Shown: positions 46,356 to 54,336 of the stretch, in pieces
Layout: every line of letters starts with the position of its first letter
Position numbering within the stretch: the stretch's first letter is position 1
Sequence record: PZ534512.1
Direction: 5' to 3' (one strand)
Source: a phage
DNA: 64,000 nt
Translations under genes and position numbers: made by a program
The notes under the pieces: generated by a model
What the model was told of the DNA's origin: nothing
Seen by the model: only the letters and a program-made list of their open reading frames with translations
Databases searched by the model: none

Positions 46356-46558
46356 ATATAATTAATAAGATTTTTGGAATTCAGTACATTAAGGTCACAT
46401 ATAAAGTAACAGATAAAAATCCGTATACTGATGAACACGAAGAACCACAAGTTAAGTCTATTATATTAGAAAAGGACCCTAACTGGCCAGTTGAATTTCG
46501 TCTTCCTTGCTATGGTCATTGGGCTGATGTTGAAATTATAAGCATTGAAAATGTCTGA
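46352..46558 (+). CDS. hypothetical protein
   Basis: 68-aa ORF. Confidence 0.5.
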   Translation: MNIINKIFGIQYIKVTYKVTDKNPYTDEHEEPQVKSIILEKDPNWPVEFRLPCYGHWADVEIISIENV

Positions 46559-47009
46559 GTTAGAGATTAGAAGCAATTTTAGATGGCCATCATGTGCATT
46601 AAGTAATTTCGCCCATTGGCCTTTCGTTATGGATGGTATTCAATTTGGAGGTCTCGAAGGATTCCTCCAAGGGTGTAAGGTGAAAAATGTTGAACAACAA
46701 CGTCGTATATTTGGGTTATCCGGGCTTGCCGCCCAACAAGCTGGAAGGTCTTATGCTAGAGCTCAGGACCGTGGGACCCTCTTCTGGCTTGGAGTTCCGT
46801 TTTCAAGATACTCCCCGGCGTGGAAAGAATTATACACAAATGCATATTTTGAAGCAGCGATCCAAAACAAGGGCTTTCGTGATGCATTACAAGCCTCGAA
46901 AGGAAAAGTTTTGAAGCACAGCATGGCTAGTGGTCTAACAAAAGATGATACAATATTAACCGAAGCTGAATTTATTGATGTGTTAAACCTATTAAGAGAC
47001 TCTCTATGA
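46545..47009 (+). CDS. NADAR/YbiA-like domain protein (putative ADP-ribose-processing hydrolase)
   Basis: 154 aa; LSNFAHWPFVMDGIQFGGLEGFLQGCK resembles E. coli YbiA FSNFAAWPIKVDGKTWPTSEHYFQAQK; locally GC-rich. Confidence 0.5.
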   Translation: MKMSELEIRSNFRWPSCALSNFAHWPFVMDGIQFGGLEGFLQGCKVKNVEQQRRIFGLSGLAAQQAGRSYARAQDRGTLFWLGVPFSRYSPAWKELYTNAYFEAAIQNKGFRDALQASKGKVLKHSMASGLTKDDTILTEAEFIDVLNLLRDSL

Positions 47010-47842: not shown

Positions 47843-48111
47843 TGTTTGTTGTTCACACTATTTATGAAAATGAAGGTAATACTACACGTGATTACGGTCA
47901 CGTAAATCAATTTTTTAGATGCAATCCAGAATTCCGAGCTCAAAAAGACGAACGAATTTTTAAAAAATGTGTAGAGCAAGGTTTCATTTACGTCAAACAC
48001 TGGATGCAAGGAAATAAAGTTAGAACCACGTACCATAGGTCTTTGACTGAGCTTAATGATGAATTGATTTATAATAGAGCTGTAAACCAAACTCTAAAGG
48101 ATGAACAATGA
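47842..48111 (+). CDS. hypothetical protein
   Basis: 89-aa ORF. Confidence 0.5.
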   Translation: MFVVHTIYENEGNTTRDYGHVNQFFRCNPEFRAQKDERIFKKCVEQGFIYVKHWMQGNKVRTTYHRSLTELNDELIYNRAVNQTLKDEQ

Positions 48112-49571
48112 TTCTTAAAATTCTGAACGAAATAGCATCTATTGGTTCAACTAAGCAGAAGCAAGCAATTCTTGAAAAGAATAAAGATAATGAATTGCTT
48201 AAACGAGTATATCGTCTGACTTATTCTCGTGGGTTGCAGTATTATATCAAGAAATGGCCTAAATCTGGTATTGCTACCCAGAGTTTTGGAATGTTGACTC
48301 TTACCGATATGCTTGACTTCATTGAATTCACGTTAGCTACTCGGAAATTGACCGGAAATGCGGCAATTGAGGAATTATCTGGATATATCACCGATGGTAA
48401 AAAAGATGATGTTGAAGTTTTGCGTCGAGTGATGATGCGAGACCTTGAATGTGGTGCTTCAGTATCTATTGCAAACAAAGTTTGGCCAGGTTTAATTCCT
48501 GAACAACCTCAAATGCTCGCAAGTTCTTATGATGAAAAAGGCATTAGTAAGAATATCAAATTTCCAGCCTTTGCACAATTAAAAGCAGATGGAGCTCGGT
48601 GTTTTGCTGAAGTTAGAGGTGATGAATTAGATGATGTCCGTCTTTTATCACGAGCTGGTAATGAATATCTAGGATTAGATCTTCTTAAGGAAGAGTTAAT
48701 CAAAATGACCGCTGAAGCCCGCCAGATTCATCCAGAAGGTGTGTTAATTGATGGCGAATTGGTATACCATGAGCAAGTTAAAAAGGAGCCAGAAGGCCTA
48801 GATTTTCTTTTTGATGCTTATCCTGAAATTAGTAAAGCTAAAGAGTTTGCTGAAGTAGCTGAATCACGTACTACTTCTAATGGAATCGCTAATAAATCTT
48901 TAAAGGGAACTATTTCAGAAAAAGAAGCTCAATGCATGAAGTTTCAGGTCTGGGATTATGTTCCGTTGGTAGAAATATACGGTCTTCCAGCATTTCGTTT
49001 AAAATATGATGTACGTTTTTCTAAATTAGAACAAATGACATCAGGATATGATAAAGTAATTTTAATTGAAAACCAAGTAGTAAATAACCTAGATGAAGCT
49101 AAGGTAATTTATAAAAAGTATATTGACCAAGGTCTTGAAGGTATTATTCTCAAAAATACCGATGGATTATGGGAAAATGCTCGTTCAAAAAATCTTTATA
49201 AATTTAAAGAAGTAATTGATGTTGATTTAAAAATTGTAGGAATTTATCCTCACCGTAAAGACCCTACTAAAGCAGGTGGATTTATTCTTGAGTCAGAGTG
49301 TGGAAAAATTAAGGTAAATGCGGGTTCAGGCTTAAAAGATAAAGCCGGCGTAAAATCACATGAACTTGACCGTACTCGCATTATGGAAAATCAAAATTAT
49401 TATATTGGAAAAATTCTAGAGTGCGAATGCAACGGTTGGTTAAAATCTGATGGCCGCACTGATTACGTTAAATTATTTCTTCCGATTGCGATTCGTTTAC
49501 GCGAAGATAAAACTAAAGCTAATACATTCGAAGATGTATTTGGTGATTTTCATGAGGTAACTGGTCTATGA
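48108..49571 (+). CDS. 30: ATP-dependent DNA ligase
   Basis: 487 aa; adenylation motif KADGARC; N-terminus MILKILNEIASIGSTKQKQAILEKNKDNELLKRVYRLTYSRG. Confidence 0.95.
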   Translation: MILKILNEIASIGSTKQKQAILEKNKDNELLKRVYRLTYSRGLQYYIKKWPKSGIATQSFGMLTLTDMLDFIEFTLATRKLTGNAAIEELSGYITDGKKDDVEVLRRVMMRDLECGASVSIANKVWPGLIPEQPQMLASSYDEKGISKNIKFPAFAQLKADGARCFAEVRGDELDDVRLLSRAGNEYLGLDLLKEELIKMTAEARQIHPEGVLIDGELVYHEQVKKEPEGLDFLFDAYPEISKAKEFAEVAESRTTSNGIANKSLKGTISEKEAQCMKFQVWDYVPLVEIYGLPAFRLKYDVRFSKLEQMTSGYDKVILIENQVVNNLDEAKVIYKKYIDQGLEGIILKNTDGLWENARSKNLYKFKEVIDVDLKIVGIYPHRKDPTKAGGFILESECGKIKVNAGSGLKDKAGVKSHELDRTRIMENQNYYIGKILECECNGWLKSDGRTDYVKLFLPIAIRLREDKTKANTFEDVFGDFHEVTGL

Positions 49572-49756
49572 AAGCTTACTTAGAAACAATTGTCGTGGCT
49601 CAAAAAGAAGGTGGAGATGTTTCTACTTCTGTATCACAAATCATGATTGAATTTATAGATGCATATGCTTATAATAAATTCACAGAAACTTTTGATGCTT
49701 ATGAAAAAGGTCCAAAGTTTGAAATATATCGTACTCTCTTACCAATAGATTATTAA
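49568..49756 (+). CDS. hypothetical protein
   Basis: 62-aa ORF followed by GGCCTTCGGGCC hairpin at 49755-49772. Confidence 0.5.
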   Translation: MKAYLETIVVAQKEGGDVSTSVSQIMIEFIDAYAYNKFTETFDAYEKGPKFEIYRTLLPIDY

Positions 49757-49777
49757 AGGCCTTCGGGCCTTTAATTT

Positions 49778-49785
49778 TATAAATA
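49778..49785 (+). promoter_or_regulatory. late promoter TATAAATA upstream of first alt-type gene
   Basis: exact tataaata. Confidence 0.5.
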
Positions 49786-49808
49786 GAATAAACACTAGAG
49801 AGGATATG

Positions 49809-51896
49809 ATGGAACTCATTACAGAATTATTTGACGAAGATACTACTCTTCCGATTACAAACTTAAATCCAAAGAAGAAAATACCACAAATTTTTTCAGT
49901 TCACGTTGATGATGCAATTGAACAACCAGGATTTCGTTTATGTACCTATACATCTGGAGGTGATACTAATCGCGATTTAAAGATGGGCGATAAAATGATG
50001 CATATTGTTCCTTTTACATTAACTGCTAAAGGTTCAATTGCTAAATTAAAAGGTCTTGGTCCAAGCCCAATTAATTATATCAATTCAGTTTTTACTGTTG
50101 CAATGCAAACAATGCGTCAGTATAAAATTGATGCCTGTATGCTCCGTATTCTTAAGTCTAAAACCGCTGGTCAAGCTCGACAAATTCAAGTTATTGCTGA
50201 TAGACTTATCCGTAGTCGTTCAGGTGGCAGATACGTCCTTCTTAAGGAACTCTGGGATTACGATAAAAAGTATGCATATATTCTTATACATCGCAAAAAT
50301 GTATCACTAGAAGACATTCCAGGAGTTCCAGAAATTAGTACCGAGCTCTTTACTAAAGTTGAATCGAAGGTCGGTGATGTTTATATCAATAAAGATACTG
50401 GAGCTCAAGTAACTAAAAATGAGGCAATTGCAGCATCTATTGCACAAGAAAATGATAAACGTTCTGACCAAGCTGTAATCGTTAAAGTTAAAATTTCCCG
50501 TAGAGCAATTGCGCAAAGTCAATCGTTAGAGTCTTCTAGATTTGAAAGTGAATTATTCCAGAAGTATGAATCTACTGCAGCTAATTTCAATAAACCTGCT
50601 ACCGCTCCTTTAATTCCCGAAGCAGAAGAAATGAAGCTTGGAATTAATTCATTAGCTTCTAAAACTAAGGCAGCAAAAATTATTGCTGAAGGAACTGCAG
50701 ATGAACTTCATTATGACTATAAATTCTTTTCAAAAAGTGAGGTTAATGAAGTTTCTGAAAAAATTAAAGATGTAATTCTTAATGCGATTAAAAATGAACC
50801 AACTACTTCAATAAAATGTTTAGAGAAATACGCAGCAGCTGTTAATCAACTCTTTGAAGAATATAAAGATAATTGGCTTGATAAACATAATAAAACTCGT
50901 AAAGGGCAGCCAGATGAAGTCTGGGAAGAAATAACTAAAAATGCCTGGAATGCAGCAAAAACTAAATTCCTCAAACGAATGATTTATAGCTTTTCTGGAA
51001 TTGGTGCTGGTCCAATGATTGATATTACTATTGCCCGTGATGGTTCTAAATATACTCCATCACAAAAGCGCGGCATTAGAGAATATTGTGGTTCAGGATA
51101 TACAGACATTAATAATCTTCTTTTAGGTCGTTACAATCCAGAACGATATGATGTAATGAGTGAAAAAGAAATTGAATCTGCTATAAATAATTTAGATTCA
51201 GCTTTTGAAAATGGTGACCGCATACCGGAAGGCATTACAGTTTATCGTGCTCAAAGTATGACTGCTCCTATATACGAAGCGCTAGTTAAAAATAAAGTGT
51301 TCTATTTCAGAAATTTTGTATCTACTTCTTTAACTCCTATCATTTTTGGGCGTTTTGGAATTACACATGCTGGTATTGGTCTTTTAGAACCAGAAGCTCG
51401 TAATGAATTAACAGTTGATAAAAATGAAGAAGGAATAACTATTAATCCAAACGAAATAAGAGCGTATAAAGAAAATCCTGAATACGTTAAAGTTCAAATA
51501 GGATGGGCAATTGACGGCGCGCATAAAGTTAATGTTGTATATCCAGGAAGTCTCGGAATAGCAACAGAAGCTGAAGTTATTCTACCGCGCGGATTGATGG
51601 TCAAAGTTAATAAAATAACTGATGCTTCTAATAATGACGGAACAACATCTAATAATACAAAACTCATTCAAGCTGAAGTTATGACCACAGAAGAACTCAC
51701 CGAATCAGTAATCTATGACGGAGACCATTTAATGGAAACTGGTGAATTGGTTACAATGACAGGTGATATAGAAGATAGAGTTGACTTTGCATCATTTGTT
51801 TCATCAAATGTTAAACAGAAAGTAGAATCATCTCTTGGAATTATTGCGTCTTGCATAGATATTACAAACATGCCTTACAAGTTCGTTCAAGGATAA
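49809..51896 (+). CDS. alt: Alt-family ADP-ribosyltransferase paralog 1
   Basis: 695 aa from ATG 49809; N-terminus MELITELFD; ART motifs YRAQS, FVSTSL, EAEVILPRG. Confidence 0.75.
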   Translation: MELITELFDEDTTLPITNLNPKKKIPQIFSVHVDDAIEQPGFRLCTYTSGGDTNRDLKMGDKMMHIVPFTLTAKGSIAKLKGLGPSPINYINSVFTVAMQTMRQYKIDACMLRILKSKTAGQARQIQVIADRLIRSRSGGRYVLLKELWDYDKKYAYILIHRKNVSLEDIPGVPEISTELFTKVESKVGDVYINKDTGAQVTKNEAIAASIAQENDKRSDQAVIVKVKISRRAIAQSQSLESSRFESELFQKYESTAANFNKPATAPLIPEAEEMKLGINSLASKTKAAKIIAEGTADELHYDYKFFSKSEVNEVSEKIKDVILNAIKNEPTTSIKCLEKYAAAVNQLFEEYKDNWLDKHNKTRKGQPDEVWEEITKNAWNAAKTKFLKRMIYSFSGIGAGPMIDITIARDGSKYTPSQKRGIREYCGSGYTDINNLLLGRYNPERYDVMSEKEIESAINNLDSAFENGDRIPEGITVYRAQSMTAPIYEALVKNKVFYFRNFVSTSLTPIIFGRFGITHAGIGLLEPEARNELTVDKNEEGITINPNEIRAYKENPEYVKVQIGWAIDGAHKVNVVYPGSLGIATEAEVILPRGLMVKVNKITDASNNDGTTSNNTKLIQAEVMTTEELTESVIYDGDHLMETGELVTMTGDIEDRVDFASFVSSNVKQKVESSLGIIASCIDITNMPYKFVQG

Positions 51897-51899
51897 ATC

Positions 51900-53957
51900 A
51901 TGGAACTTATTACAGAATTATTTGACGGCGCTTCGGCGCCGGTTGTTAACTTAAATCCTAAGCATAAAATACCACAAATTTTTGCTATCCAAGCCGGCGA
52001 AGAAAGCGTGCTTCCTGGATTTAGATTTTGTACATACACCTCTGGTGGTGATACAAATAAAAACGTTAAGCCAGGCGATAAAATGATGCATATCGTAATG
52101 ATAGGTGTCAATGAGAAACTATCATTAGTTAAGCTTAAAAACTTGGGTGGAAATCCAATTGGTGTCATTAATGCCGTTTTTGATACTGCTCTTCAAACAA
52201 TGAAACAGTATAAAATCGACGCATGCCTATTCCGCGTACTAAAGAGTAAAACAAATGGCGCAGCTCGTCAAATGCAAGTTATTGCTGACCGTTTAGTACG
52301 TACTAAGGGAGCAGGTCGATATGTTCTCTTAAAGGAAATCTGGGACTATGATAAGAAATATGCATATATTATGGTTTACCGTAAAAATGCCAATTTAGAA
52401 GACATTCCAGGTGTACCTCCTATTTCAACTGAGTTATTCACAAAAGTTGAATCAAAGGTTGGTGATGTTTATGTAGACGTTAAAACAGGTAATGCTGTTC
52501 CTAAAGCTGTCGCTGTTGCTGCTTCTATTGCTTTAGAAAATGATAAGCGCACTGATCAAGCTGTTATTCAGAAAACTAAAATTAGTCGTCGATTAGCAGC
52601 ACAAGCTCAATATTCTACTGTTGATGCTTCACTTCAGGGTGATAGCTTCGCTGCCAAGAAATATCAAGAGTTTGAATCTAAAGTTCCGGTATATAAAGCA
52701 GAAGGACCAATGAACTCTGGCGTTATCCAGATTGGTTCAAACTTCAGCAAAGGAGCTATCGGTGGTATGAGAAGTGCTTCTCGTTTTAAATCTAATGATT
52801 ATGAACTAGAAAGTTTCCGAAATCATATTGCATTGACCCATGCACGTTTACGCGATCCATCTATCAAGCTGCAGAGCGATATAACATATCAAGGTTCTCA
52901 AGAATATTTAAAGAATAAAGAATTCTTTGATTATAAAACTGATAAAATTTTAAGCGATCTTGCTGACATTAATATTTCTAATAGCTTTGATGTTATTAAG
53001 AAAATTATCAATGATTTAGTTAAAGATTCTAAAGCTACATCAGATGAAAAGACAGCTATTATTCAATTTGTAATGAATGGCATTTATAAATTGATTAATG
53101 AATCTGCTGCTCAGGCATATGAATATGCAAGTACTGAAGTAACTCCAAAAGGACTGACTCAGGCTGAGTCTGATGTAATTGAAGATTATTGTGCAGATTC
53201 ATATGTTGAAATGAACTCGTTCCTCTTGGGTAAACCAGATTCTACCCGTGAAGAATACATGGAACGAGCTATTAAACACATCGAGACGCTGGATTCTGCA
53301 TTCGCCAAAGGATCAGTTCTTCCTCCGGGAACTACGCTTTATCGTGGACAAGAAGTTACTTTTAAAACTTTACGCCATAATATTGAAAATAAAATGTTCT
53401 ATTTCAAGAACTTCGTATCAACATCGCTTAAACCAAATATCTTCGGTGAGCATGGTAAAAACTATATGGCTCTAGATGATTCCGGCGCAGTATTTTCTGG
53501 TGAAGGAGAAGGTTCTGTTGATGCCGAAGATTTAATGCATATGGGTAGTCATTCTGCATATGCTAATGAAGATGCTGAAACTAGCGTAGGTATGGTAATT
53601 AAAGGGGCTGAACGAATCAAAGTTATCGTTCCAGGTCATTTATCAGGATTTCCATCAGAAGCTGAAGTTATTCTACCACGTGGAATTTTGTTGAAGATTA
53701 ATAAAGTAAGCACGTACATGATGAAAGAAACTGCTTATAACAAGTATCTAATCGAAGGCACAATCGTTCCTCCTTCTGAACAATTAGAAGAATCGGTATA
53801 TGATGGCGATCATCTAATGGAAACTGGCGAAGTTCGTCCAATGGCTGGGTTTAATCAATTCCTTGTAGAAGAATCAAAAGAAGAGGAAAACGAAGTTTCT
53901 CAAATCTTGGCTTCTTTGGTTAACATCAACGGAATGTCTAAAAAGTTCAAGATGTAG
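51900..53957 (+). CDS. alt: Alt-family ADP-ribosyltransferase paralog 2
   Basis: 685 aa; N-terminus MELITELFD; ART motifs YRGQE, FVSTSL, EAEVILPRG. Confidence 0.75.
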   Translation: MELITELFDGASAPVVNLNPKHKIPQIFAIQAGEESVLPGFRFCTYTSGGDTNKNVKPGDKMMHIVMIGVNEKLSLVKLKNLGGNPIGVINAVFDTALQTMKQYKIDACLFRVLKSKTNGAARQMQVIADRLVRTKGAGRYVLLKEIWDYDKKYAYIMVYRKNANLEDIPGVPPISTELFTKVESKVGDVYVDVKTGNAVPKAVAVAASIALENDKRTDQAVIQKTKISRRLAAQAQYSTVDASLQGDSFAAKKYQEFESKVPVYKAEGPMNSGVIQIGSNFSKGAIGGMRSASRFKSNDYELESFRNHIALTHARLRDPSIKLQSDITYQGSQEYLKNKEFFDYKTDKILSDLADINISNSFDVIKKIINDLVKDSKATSDEKTAIIQFVMNGIYKLINESAAQAYEYASTEVTPKGLTQAESDVIEDYCADSYVEMNSFLLGKPDSTREEYMERAIKHIETLDSAFAKGSVLPPGTTLYRGQEVTFKTLRHNIENKMFYFKNFVSTSLKPNIFGEHGKNYMALDDSGAVFSGEGEGSVDAEDLMHMGSHSAYANEDAETSVGMVIKGAERIKVIVPGHLSGFPSEAEVILPRGILLKINKVSTYMMKETAYNKYLIEGTIVPPSEQLEESVYDGDHLMETGEVRPMAGFNQFLVEESKEEENEVSQILASLVNINGMSKKFKM

Positions 53958-54009
53958 TTTACAAGTCCCTCGTGTTGTGTTATAGTAGTCTTACTGACAT
54001 AACATGAGG
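53957..54009 (+). promoter_or_regulatory. early promoter embedded in inverted repeat (copy of element at 38128)
   Basis: gtttacaagtccctcgtgttgtgttatagtagtcttactgacataacatgagg. Confidence 0.5.
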
Positions 54010-54017
54010 AACACAAA

Positions 54018-54308
54018 ATGAAATCTTCTTTGCGCTTTTTGGGTCAAGAACTTGTAGTTGAAGGCGTTATTCCTGCTGATAATGCTTTTAATGAAGCAGT
54101 TTATGATGAATTTATCAAAATTTTTGGAACAGATAAAAAGTTCGGAATTTTTCCTTCTGAAAATTTTTCAAAGCCAGAACAGACTGAAAGCATTTTCCAA
54201 GGTGTAGTAACAGGTAAATTTGAGTCAGAAGCTCCGGTAAAAATTGAAGTTTATATTGAAGACAGTTTAGTTGCTTCAGTTGCTGCTTTTATTTCATTCC
54301 GTAAATAA
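54018..54308 (+). CDS. hypothetical protein
   Basis: 96-aa ORF. Confidence 0.55.
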   Translation: MKSSLRFLGQELVVEGVIPADNAFNEAVYDEFIKIFGTDKKFGIFPSENFSKPEQTESIFQGVVTGKFESEAPVKIEVYIEDSLVASVAAFISFRK

Positions 54309-54314
54309 AAATAT

Positions 54315-54332
54315 GGGGACCTTTCGGTCCCC
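54315..54332. terminator. bidirectional hairpin between convergent genes
   Basis: ggggacctttcggtcccc between + ORF end 54308 and gene 54 stop 54337. Confidence 0.5.
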
Positions 54333-54336
54333 ATTG

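Follow-up and report, generated by a model that had tools for sequence, protein, structure and literature searches.

Alt of bacteriophage T4 is an ADP-ribosyltransferase (ART) of which the prohead core contains about 40 copies; it is ejected together with the DNA, and gp21 cleaves it after L/I-x-E motifs (PMC9026906). The two cuts have been mapped by mass spectrometry to ITE-6 and LTE-619, giving a mature protein of 68.2 kDa (PMC5694885), and the enzyme modifies Arg265 of the RNA polymerase alpha subunit as well as other host proteins (PMC5512222, PMC9503650). Paralogs of alt were described in T4, RB49 and 44RR by Nolan et al. in 2006, with a full-length duplicate in 44RR (PMC1524935). Here we analyze two adjacent alt genes, alt1 and alt2, in a 64,000-nt segment of phage record PZ534512.1 (the window; positions are numbered along the whole of it). 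Our analysis makes it likely that the locus is an ordinary T2-like Tequatrovirus alt cluster, consisting of a late promoter, alt1, alt2, alt.-3 and a terminator, and that both ARTs are delivered to the host and act on different targets there.

Two tandem genes predicted to encode Alt-type ADP-ribosyltransferases

An earlier note on this DNA had described the two open reading frames as adjacent, diverged Alt-type genes, and comparison of their products bears this out: they are 42% identical over their full length (pairwise BLASTP, E 1e-159), and both match Pfam PF03496 (ADPrib_exo_Tox; 1.8e-37 for alt1, 2e-20 for alt2) and, from end to end, PHROG 802 'Alt-like RNA polymerase ADP-ribosyltransferase' (4.7e-273 and 1.4e-256). 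Similarity to T4 Alt also extends over the full length, including the N-terminal PF26846 domain, with 70.6% identity for alt1 and 41% for alt2. Both PF26846 and PF03496 are precomputed on orthologs of the two proteins; NCBIfam returned zero matches for alt1, alt2 and alt.-3.

Both proteins have the same five-part build (Table 1), consisting of an N-propeptide of 6 residues that ends in ITE, an N-domain of ~230 residues, a hypervariable helical region of ~180 residues, the ART domain and an acidic C-propeptide located after an L-x-E site. Identity between the two changes along this build, from 55–75% over residues 1–238 to 8–20% over residues 238–423, 15–45% in the ART region and 26–42% in the C-terminal tail. 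The shared MELITELFD N-terminus and the strong divergence farther in are as the earlier note had them; its QYKIDAC...KKYAYI block is present in both proteins, at residues ~105–160 and so in the N-terminal third rather than in the middle. The helical region of alt1 is 15–65% identical to that of T4 Alt.

Translation places the Arg, Ser-Thr-Ser and Glu-x-Glu motifs of the R-S-E clade in the right order in both proteins, in agreement with the earlier note, with R480 in the context VYRAQ in alt1 and R482 in LYRGQ in alt2. In a family alignment of 44 members, drawn from phages of Escherichia, Klebsiella, Acinetobacter, Kosakonia and Pectobacterium, the catalytic R, the leading S of STS and the two E of ExE do not vary, and both copies are complete on it, although the note had allowed for one of them lacking catalytic residues. 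An AlphaFold model of alt1 (pLDDT 82) adopts the ART fold, with Foldseek matches in the PDB to Vis, CDTa, iota Ia, C2-I, C3 and VIP2. A sequence search of the PDB returned no solved Alt structure; alt1 gave only weak matches, at the beginning of its ART domain, and alt2 gave none, so a family profile was needed for alignment to solved structures; in it, 'LYRG' and 'E-a-E-VILPRG' align to 'YRG' and 'Q-Y-E-LLLPR' of C3-like ART and Certhrax. Mutation of a glutamate of this motif, published as E577, abolishes the activity of T4 Alt (PMC11404850). The published E577A clashes with RefSeq T4 Alt, where ExE corresponds to E574-M-E576 and Val occupies position 577; this mismatch is probably an off-by-one or reflects construct numbering. 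Both genes are thus predicted to encode arginine-type (R-S-ExE) mono-ADP-ribosyltransferases.

The R-S-E toxins (Vis, iota Ia, CDTa, C2-I, VIP2 and C3) are only 14–26% identical to these proteins, and Alt differs from them in that a phage N-domain and propeptides replace the translocation or adaptor domain, with delivery by ejection from the head. We also considered an arrangement of the binary-toxin A type (VIP2/iota Ia), in which the N-terminal part is an inactive ART-like adaptor, and rejected it, finding no ART match among the N-domain hits.

Among four phages (that of the window, teqsoen, WL-3 and T2), the ratio of nonsynonymous to synonymous substitution rates (dN/dS) is 0.00–0.07 for alt1 and 0.03–0.06 for alt2, with a synonymous divergence (dS) of up to 0.26. 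Together with the complete catalytic residues, these values indicate that both genes are intact and under strong purifying selection. The low ratios and the intact motifs also led us to reject alt2 as a pseudogene.

The gene pair is the norm in Tequatrovirus

At the protein level, alt1 is 100% identical to its counterpart in phage teqsoen and 98% identical to T2 Alt (X69893). T2 (MH751506, AYD82792/AYD82791) carries both genes in the same order and with the same spacing, alt2 being 98.4% identical, and differs in nothing of substance, although it labels the second gene 'hypothetical protein, alt.-1'. With the two genes as a 4.9-kb query, 338 phage records cover at least 80% at 95–98% nucleotide identity, many of them annotated 'Alt-like RNA polymerase ADP-ribosyltransferase (x2)' (RefSeq Tequatrovirus), with 97–98% nucleotide identity to many of the Tequatrovirus genomes so annotated, and alt2 is found at 90% amino acid identity or more in ~402 phage records, T2 included (31 at 99% or above, 366 at 95–99%). 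Since hundreds of Tequatrovirus records carry both genes, the two-gene layout is the genus norm and T4 the derived exception. The arrangement is already known and annotated, and as a genome feature the pair, present in hundreds of annotated T-even genomes, is routine. The interest that the earlier note saw in it, which presupposed a departure from the standard T4 layout, essentially does not survive this comparison: T2 and most Tequatrovirus have the pair, and T4 has a remnant of alt2.

T4 Alt (NP_049811) shares with alt1 the flanking genes, the R/STS/ExE core and the ITE-6 and LTE sites, and with alt2 the whole architecture. It differs from alt1 in the central 360 codons (helical region and ART), which belong to another allele (38–72% nucleotide and 15–72% amino acid identity): codons 1–240 and 629–695 are 96–100% identical in nucleotide sequence, codons ~241–600 only 38–72%. 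About 320 phage records have the T2-type alt1 allele, and ~210 records stand at 60–80% identity (the T4 type plus Dhakavirus alt-a). In the window, 50529–51600 is the divergent stretch between T2-type and T4-type alleles, with near-identical termini.

For alt2, T4 has no intact counterpart. Its alt.-1 and alt.-2 correspond to the initial 116 codons of alt2 (95–98% identity), with an additional frameshift near codon 55, and the rest falls to a 1,699-bp deletion between 9-bp near-repeats (Table 1); the T4 RefSeq entry notes that alt.-1 and alt.-2 'reflect an old duplication of the first part of gene alt'. Relatives of T4 such as RB55 and fPS-2 likewise carry the truncated remnant alone.

Such remnants could mean that alt2 is a redundant, decaying duplicate with no distinct role that is heading for loss, T4 being the end state. 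T4, RB55 and fPS-2 keep only the truncated form, PST-type phages have a single fused gene, and T4 Alt itself is non-essential (PMC9026906). We nevertheless regard decay as very unlikely. alt2 is intact in ~400 genomes at 97–99.7% amino acid identity, its dN/dS is low at the dS given above, and it retains every catalytic and processing motif; moreover, an orthologous alt2 lineage lives on in Dhakavirus (bootstrap 100), and in the PST and P0005 hybrids described below, the effector that survives is that of alt2.

Prohead processing sites are conserved in both proteins

We computed a mass of 68.2 kDa for residues 7–619 of T4 Alt, which equals the published value and confirms the numbering of the mapped cut sites. 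Both sites are kept at the aligned positions in alt1 and alt2. The earlier note had pointed to the N-terminal ITE as a cleavage site, and this is the mapped ITE-6 of T4 Alt; the packaging that it drew from the motif is suggested by homology. A second conserved site, absent from that note, is the C-terminal L-x-E, which is LTE-632 followed by SVIYDGD in alt1 and LEE-631 followed by SVYDGD in alt2. LTE-632 aligns with LTE-619 of T4, and the alt1 tail is 97–100% identical to that of T4.

Both L-x-E sites are conserved family-wide, the C-terminal one as L, I or M, then x-E, before S or A. The block (V/I)YDGD follows it in ~40 of the 44 members, and a divergent few, such as P0133, P0154 and P0156, are without it. 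In the AlphaFold models of both proteins, the C-terminal site lies in a low-confidence linker with pLDDT below 50 (residues 629–636 in alt2). Cleavage at both sites would leave mature proteins of 70.1 kDa (alt1) and 69.2 kDa (alt2). Homology to T4 Alt makes packaging of both proteins plausible, and the C-terminal site strengthens the case.

The N-domain of alt1 is ~100% identical to that of T4 Alt and 46% identical to that of Dhakavirus alt-a, and we propose that it may serve as a module for incorporation into the head core or for ejection. Only 69 of 1.84 billion representative proteins (clusters) carry the PF26846 N-domain, nearly always at the N-terminus of Alt-type proteins of 600–710 residues. 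The Alt N-domain also occurs in two distant proteins, P0212 (485 residues) and P0213 (541 residues), with hhalign probabilities of 99.8 and 99.1 across ~140–160 residues; their remainders have no detectable ART domain and no Pfam match, and may represent a different cargo carried by the same module.

Alt2 might instead be an active ART that is not injected, acting late in the producing cell or serving mainly as a structural or scaffolding protein of the head core. It would share late expression with alt1, Alt has been called an important core protein besides its catalysis (PMC11404850), and virion data on Alt2 did not turn up in the searchable literature; the available part of the fD1 virion proteome supplement names only Mod-type ribosylases and gives no evidence either way on Alt2 in virions. 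We consider this account unlikely, in view of the N-propeptide, N-domain and C-terminal site that alt2 has in common with the packaged and ejected T4 Alt, and of the near confinement of the N-domain to Alt-type proteins (the 69 representative clusters), which fits dedicated delivery.

Proposed delivery and effector parts group differently in trees

Neighbour-joining trees of the two domains disagree in how they group the genes. ART domains group by gene: alt1 joins Dhakavirus alt-a (96% amino acid identity, bootstrap 100) and alt2 joins alt-b (57%, bootstrap 100), whereas the ART domains of alt1 and alt2 are 34% identical to each other. N-domains cluster according to genome or genus, and the genus clades have support of 88–100. 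Within a genome, N-domain identity is 67% for alt1 and alt2, 66% for the a and b genes of IME341, 80% in Thanatos-1 and 56% in Aeromonas phage 31.2, as against 42–46% between genera. The N-domain and C-propeptide appear conserved and genus-specific, and the helical region and ART cassette swappable. In the best explanation, the duplication is old, from before the split of Tequatrovirus and Dhakavirus, and the effector parts of the copies were kept distinct and the delivery parts similar.

The ART cassette of alt1 (codons ~419–628) is 84–96% identical in nucleotide sequence to that of alt-a of Dhakavirus IME341 (L005:1913-3997), compared with 36–74% over the rest of the gene; so sharp a rise between diverged flanks suggests a recent exchange of the effector between genera. 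We also found single hybrid genes that join an alt1 N-terminus to an alt2 remainder, with one clean crossover each, at ~residue 100 in Yersinia phage PST and ~residue 185 in the metagenomic P0005 (Table 1). The loci that carry hybrids have no second alt gene between alt.1 and alt.-3, and hybrids are the expected product of unequal recombination between tandem N-domains. We rejected assembly artefacts as unlikely, since the genome of PST, an isolate, has a clean single crossover just as the metagenomic contigs do, at another position.

The two effector classes also differ next to the active site. In the alt2 class, the third residue ahead of the first Glu is aromatic (GFPS-EAE, EYPE-EAE, SYPN-ECE), as in C3- and iota-type toxins, and the alt1 class is without this aromatic (GIAT-EAE, APSN-EME). 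This aromatic of the ARTT loop contributes to substrate recognition, and we use it as a lead rather than as a test. With ART domains only 34% identical, separate and well-supported lineages and this loop difference, it is plausible that alt1 and alt2 have different targets.

The products of the two genes could alternatively work as a pair on the same targets, for example as a hetero-oligomer formed through the N-domains, by subfunctionalisation of one activity. The N-domains are indeed similar within a genome (the window, IME341 and Thanatos-1 values above), and the genes are probably translationally coupled. We find such a pairing highly improbable, because natural phages exist with one effector only (that of alt1 in T4 and that of alt2 in PST), the effector cassettes are exchanged independently, and the ARTT loops differ.

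Tandem alt genes elsewhere in the Straboviridae resemble those of the window in standing next to gene 54 and in their domain build, with the Dhakavirus a and b genes being the ART orthologs of alt1 and alt2. They differ in copy number (one to three), in having genus-specific N-domains, and in that the Aeromonas and Shewanella pairs belong clearly to neither the alt1 nor the alt2 lineage. Dhakavirus IME341, the Aeromonas phages 44RR and 31.2 and Shewanella phage Thanatos-1 have two copies, Dhakavirus LHE83 three, and Krischvirus ECD7 and RB49 one plus a C-terminal fragment. In Escherichia phage LHE83 (L008:5995-10590 and L009:1-1665), the tandem genes encode 694, 681 and 707 residues; the middle copy has an ART at the base of the alt1-like clade and an N-domain 88% identical to that of the third.

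Conserved termini, swappable central effectors and recombination between tandem copies also characterize polymorphic toxins and polyvalent proteins (Iyer et al. 2017, PMC5512222). The Alt family departs from that logic in that only the ART, with the helical region, varies, the exceptions being the two distant N-domain proteins without a detectable ART. Four points were not found in the searchable literature, namely the domain-wise incongruence, the sharing of a cassette between genera, the distinction between classes in the ARTT loop and the hybrid genes; they would be modest comparative-genomic refinements, drawn from simple trees.

A proposed course from assembly to injection

In the course that we propose, both proteins would be synthesized late and enter the prohead core by way of their shared terminal modules. 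By homology to the mapped sites of T4 Alt, gp21 would trim each of them at both ends, to about 70 and 69 kDa, and both would be ejected with the DNA, an ejection shown for T4 Alt only. Each would then ADP-ribosylate arginines of its own, different set of host proteins, with alt1 in the role of classical Alt; orthology leads us to expect that alt1 modifies the same targets as T4 Alt, though its ART cassette is a different allele. Recombination between the copies and with other phages would swap cassettes and yield deletions (T4), fusions (PST) and triplications (LHE83), the conserved termini serving for delivery and the central cassette being an interchangeable effector.

A broader reading, which we hold tentatively and would place slightly short of even chances, has two parts. 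Alt2 would be a second head-packaged, injected ART with targets of its own, possibly anti-defence or translation-directed, that was overlooked for fifty years since T4 deleted alt2. Alt genes would form a cassette system, in which 'helical region + ART' effectors that move between copies and genera are carried by a delivery module that consists of N-propeptide, N-domain and C-propeptide, is specific to the genus and evolves together with the phage's head core; the alt1 ART cassette, at ~90% nucleotide identity to IME341 with ~55% for the rest, is an example.

Several points weigh against injection of two enzymes with separate targets. The late-promoter consensus TATAAATA occurs 10 times in the window against 9.9 expected by chance, so that only the position of the copy ahead of alt1 argues for its assignment. 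L/I-x-E motifs are frequent, with 7–11 occurrences per protein, and the motif by itself is weak; it is the positional match to the T4 sites that carries weight. The trees are neighbour-joining trees built from only ~200 columns. T4 and PST-type phages are each without one effector, and neither effector is essential in laboratory hosts. We found no experiment on Alt2 and no virion proteome for it in the searchable literature; we infer its packaging, ejection, activity and targets, and core targeting by the six N-terminal residues or the N-domain is inferred even for T4 Alt. Even so, none of the three rivals (decay, absence of injection, action as a pair) is favoured by the data.

The remaining value of the pair is practical. 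Injected ARTs are known from T4, a phage without Alt2, and most natural T-even phages probably inject this second enzyme. For work on what Alt2 does, the difference in the ARTT loop and an architecture that is modular and recombines offer concrete starting points.

Locus layout and expression signals

From 45.8 to 58 kb, the window is collinear with T4, running from 30.6 through 30, alt.1, alt and alt.-3 to 54, 48 and 29. alt1 and alt2 thus lie between DNA ligase/alt.1 and alt.-3/gene 54, on the late-transcribed strand, as the position of T4 alt would predict (Table 1).

Table 1. Features of the alt locus and hybrid alt genes (window positions unless a contig is named)
Feature	Position	Strand	Remarks
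DNA ligase (gene 30)	48108-49571
alt.1	49568-49756
Hairpin AAAGGCC-TTCG-GGCCTTT, then AATTTTAT (T-rich tail)	49755-49772	+	just 3' of alt.1; read from sequence
T4 late-promoter consensus TATAAATA	49778-49785	+	24 nt 5' of alt1 start
alt1	49809-51896	+	695 aa; T2 allele type; positional ortholog of alt in T4 and T2
alt1 N-propeptide MELITE	49809-49826	+	gp21 cut predicted after E6; same sequence as residues 1-6 of T4 Alt
alt1 N-terminal alpha/beta domain	49827-50519	+	aa 7-237; PF26846 Tevenvirinae_ADPRT; predicted, pLDDT 70-89
alt1 hypervariable all-helical region	50520-51053	+	aa 238-415; helical in model, pLDDT ~90
alt1 ART domain	51054-51686	+	aa 416-626; R480 51246-51248, S505-T-S507 51321-51329, E587-A-E589 51567-51575
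alt1 C-terminal site and acidic C-propeptide	51696-51893	+	LTE-632 51696-51704; 63-residue propeptide aa 633-695
alt2 Shine-Dalgarno AAGGA	51889-51893	+	inside last alt1 codons
alt2	51900-53957	+	685 aa; ortholog of T2 'alt.-1' 685-aa ORF
alt2 N-propeptide MELITE	51900-51917	+	predicted gp21 cut after E6, by T4 Alt homology (PMC5694885)
alt2 N-domain	51918-52610	+	aa 7-237; PF26846
alt2 hypervariable helical region	52611-53144	+	aa 238-415
alt2 ART domain	53145-53777	+	aa 416-626; R482 53343-53345, S507-T-S509 53418-53426, E587-A-E589 53658-53666; ARTT-loop Phe584
alt2 predicted C-terminal site and C-propeptide	53784-53954	+	LEE-631 53784-53792; 54-residue propeptide aa 632-685; by homology
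Segment absent from T4	52239-53946	+	1,699-bp deletion between near-repeats CTAAAGAGT 52239-52247 and CTAAAAAGT 53938-53946
alt.-3	54018-54308	+	96 aa, DUF5498; final cluster gene
Bidirectional terminator hairpin	54313-54334		follows alt.-3; terminator scan
Hybrid alt gene, PST	L014:1501-3561		alt1 N-terminus in frame with alt2 remainder
Hybrid alt gene, P0005 contig	L012:4001-6055		alt1 N-terminus in frame with alt2 remainder
Hybrid alt gene, P0007	L013		alt1 N-terminus in frame with alt2 remainder

The length of 695 residues given for the first gene in the earlier note stands, and its start at 49806 does not. An in-frame ATG at 49806, one codon 5' of 49809, would give alt1 696 residues; we rejected it for its poor Shine-Dalgarno spacing and because every ortholog begins MELITE. 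The ATG at 49809 (MELITE...) is favoured by the Shine-Dalgarno GAGG at 49800–49803 and by the annotations of T4, T2 and teqsoen.

The hairpin just 3' of alt.1 is probably a terminator that parts the ligase/alt.1 unit from the alt operon; the consensus terminator scan did not report it, and its role is proposed from its form. T4 Alt is a late, head-packaged protein, which fits a late promoter ahead of alt1. A second exact copy of the consensus lies within alt1, at 51182–51189, ~720 nt 5' of alt2, and is either an internal late promoter or a chance match. The alt1 stop codon TAA (51894–51896) is separated from the alt2 ATG by 3 nt, and this gap, together with the alt2 AAGGA lying within alt1, implies co-transcription and translational coupling of the two genes.

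Right behind the alt2 stop and ahead of alt.-3 lies a site that resembles an early T4 promoter, GTTTACA-17 nt-(TG)TATAGT (53957–53986), and the T4 deletion of alt2 ends ~10 nt before it. By comparison of translations, alt.-3 of the window is identical to T4 Alt.-3; C-terminal extension mutations of T4 alt.-3 are the route by which the phage escapes the CmdTAC defence system (PMC11618068). Farther upstream, the gene 30.3 ortholog (46545–47009) contains, in another frame, an open reading frame for 75 residues (46687–46914) that corresponds to the internal gene 30.3' annotated in T4.

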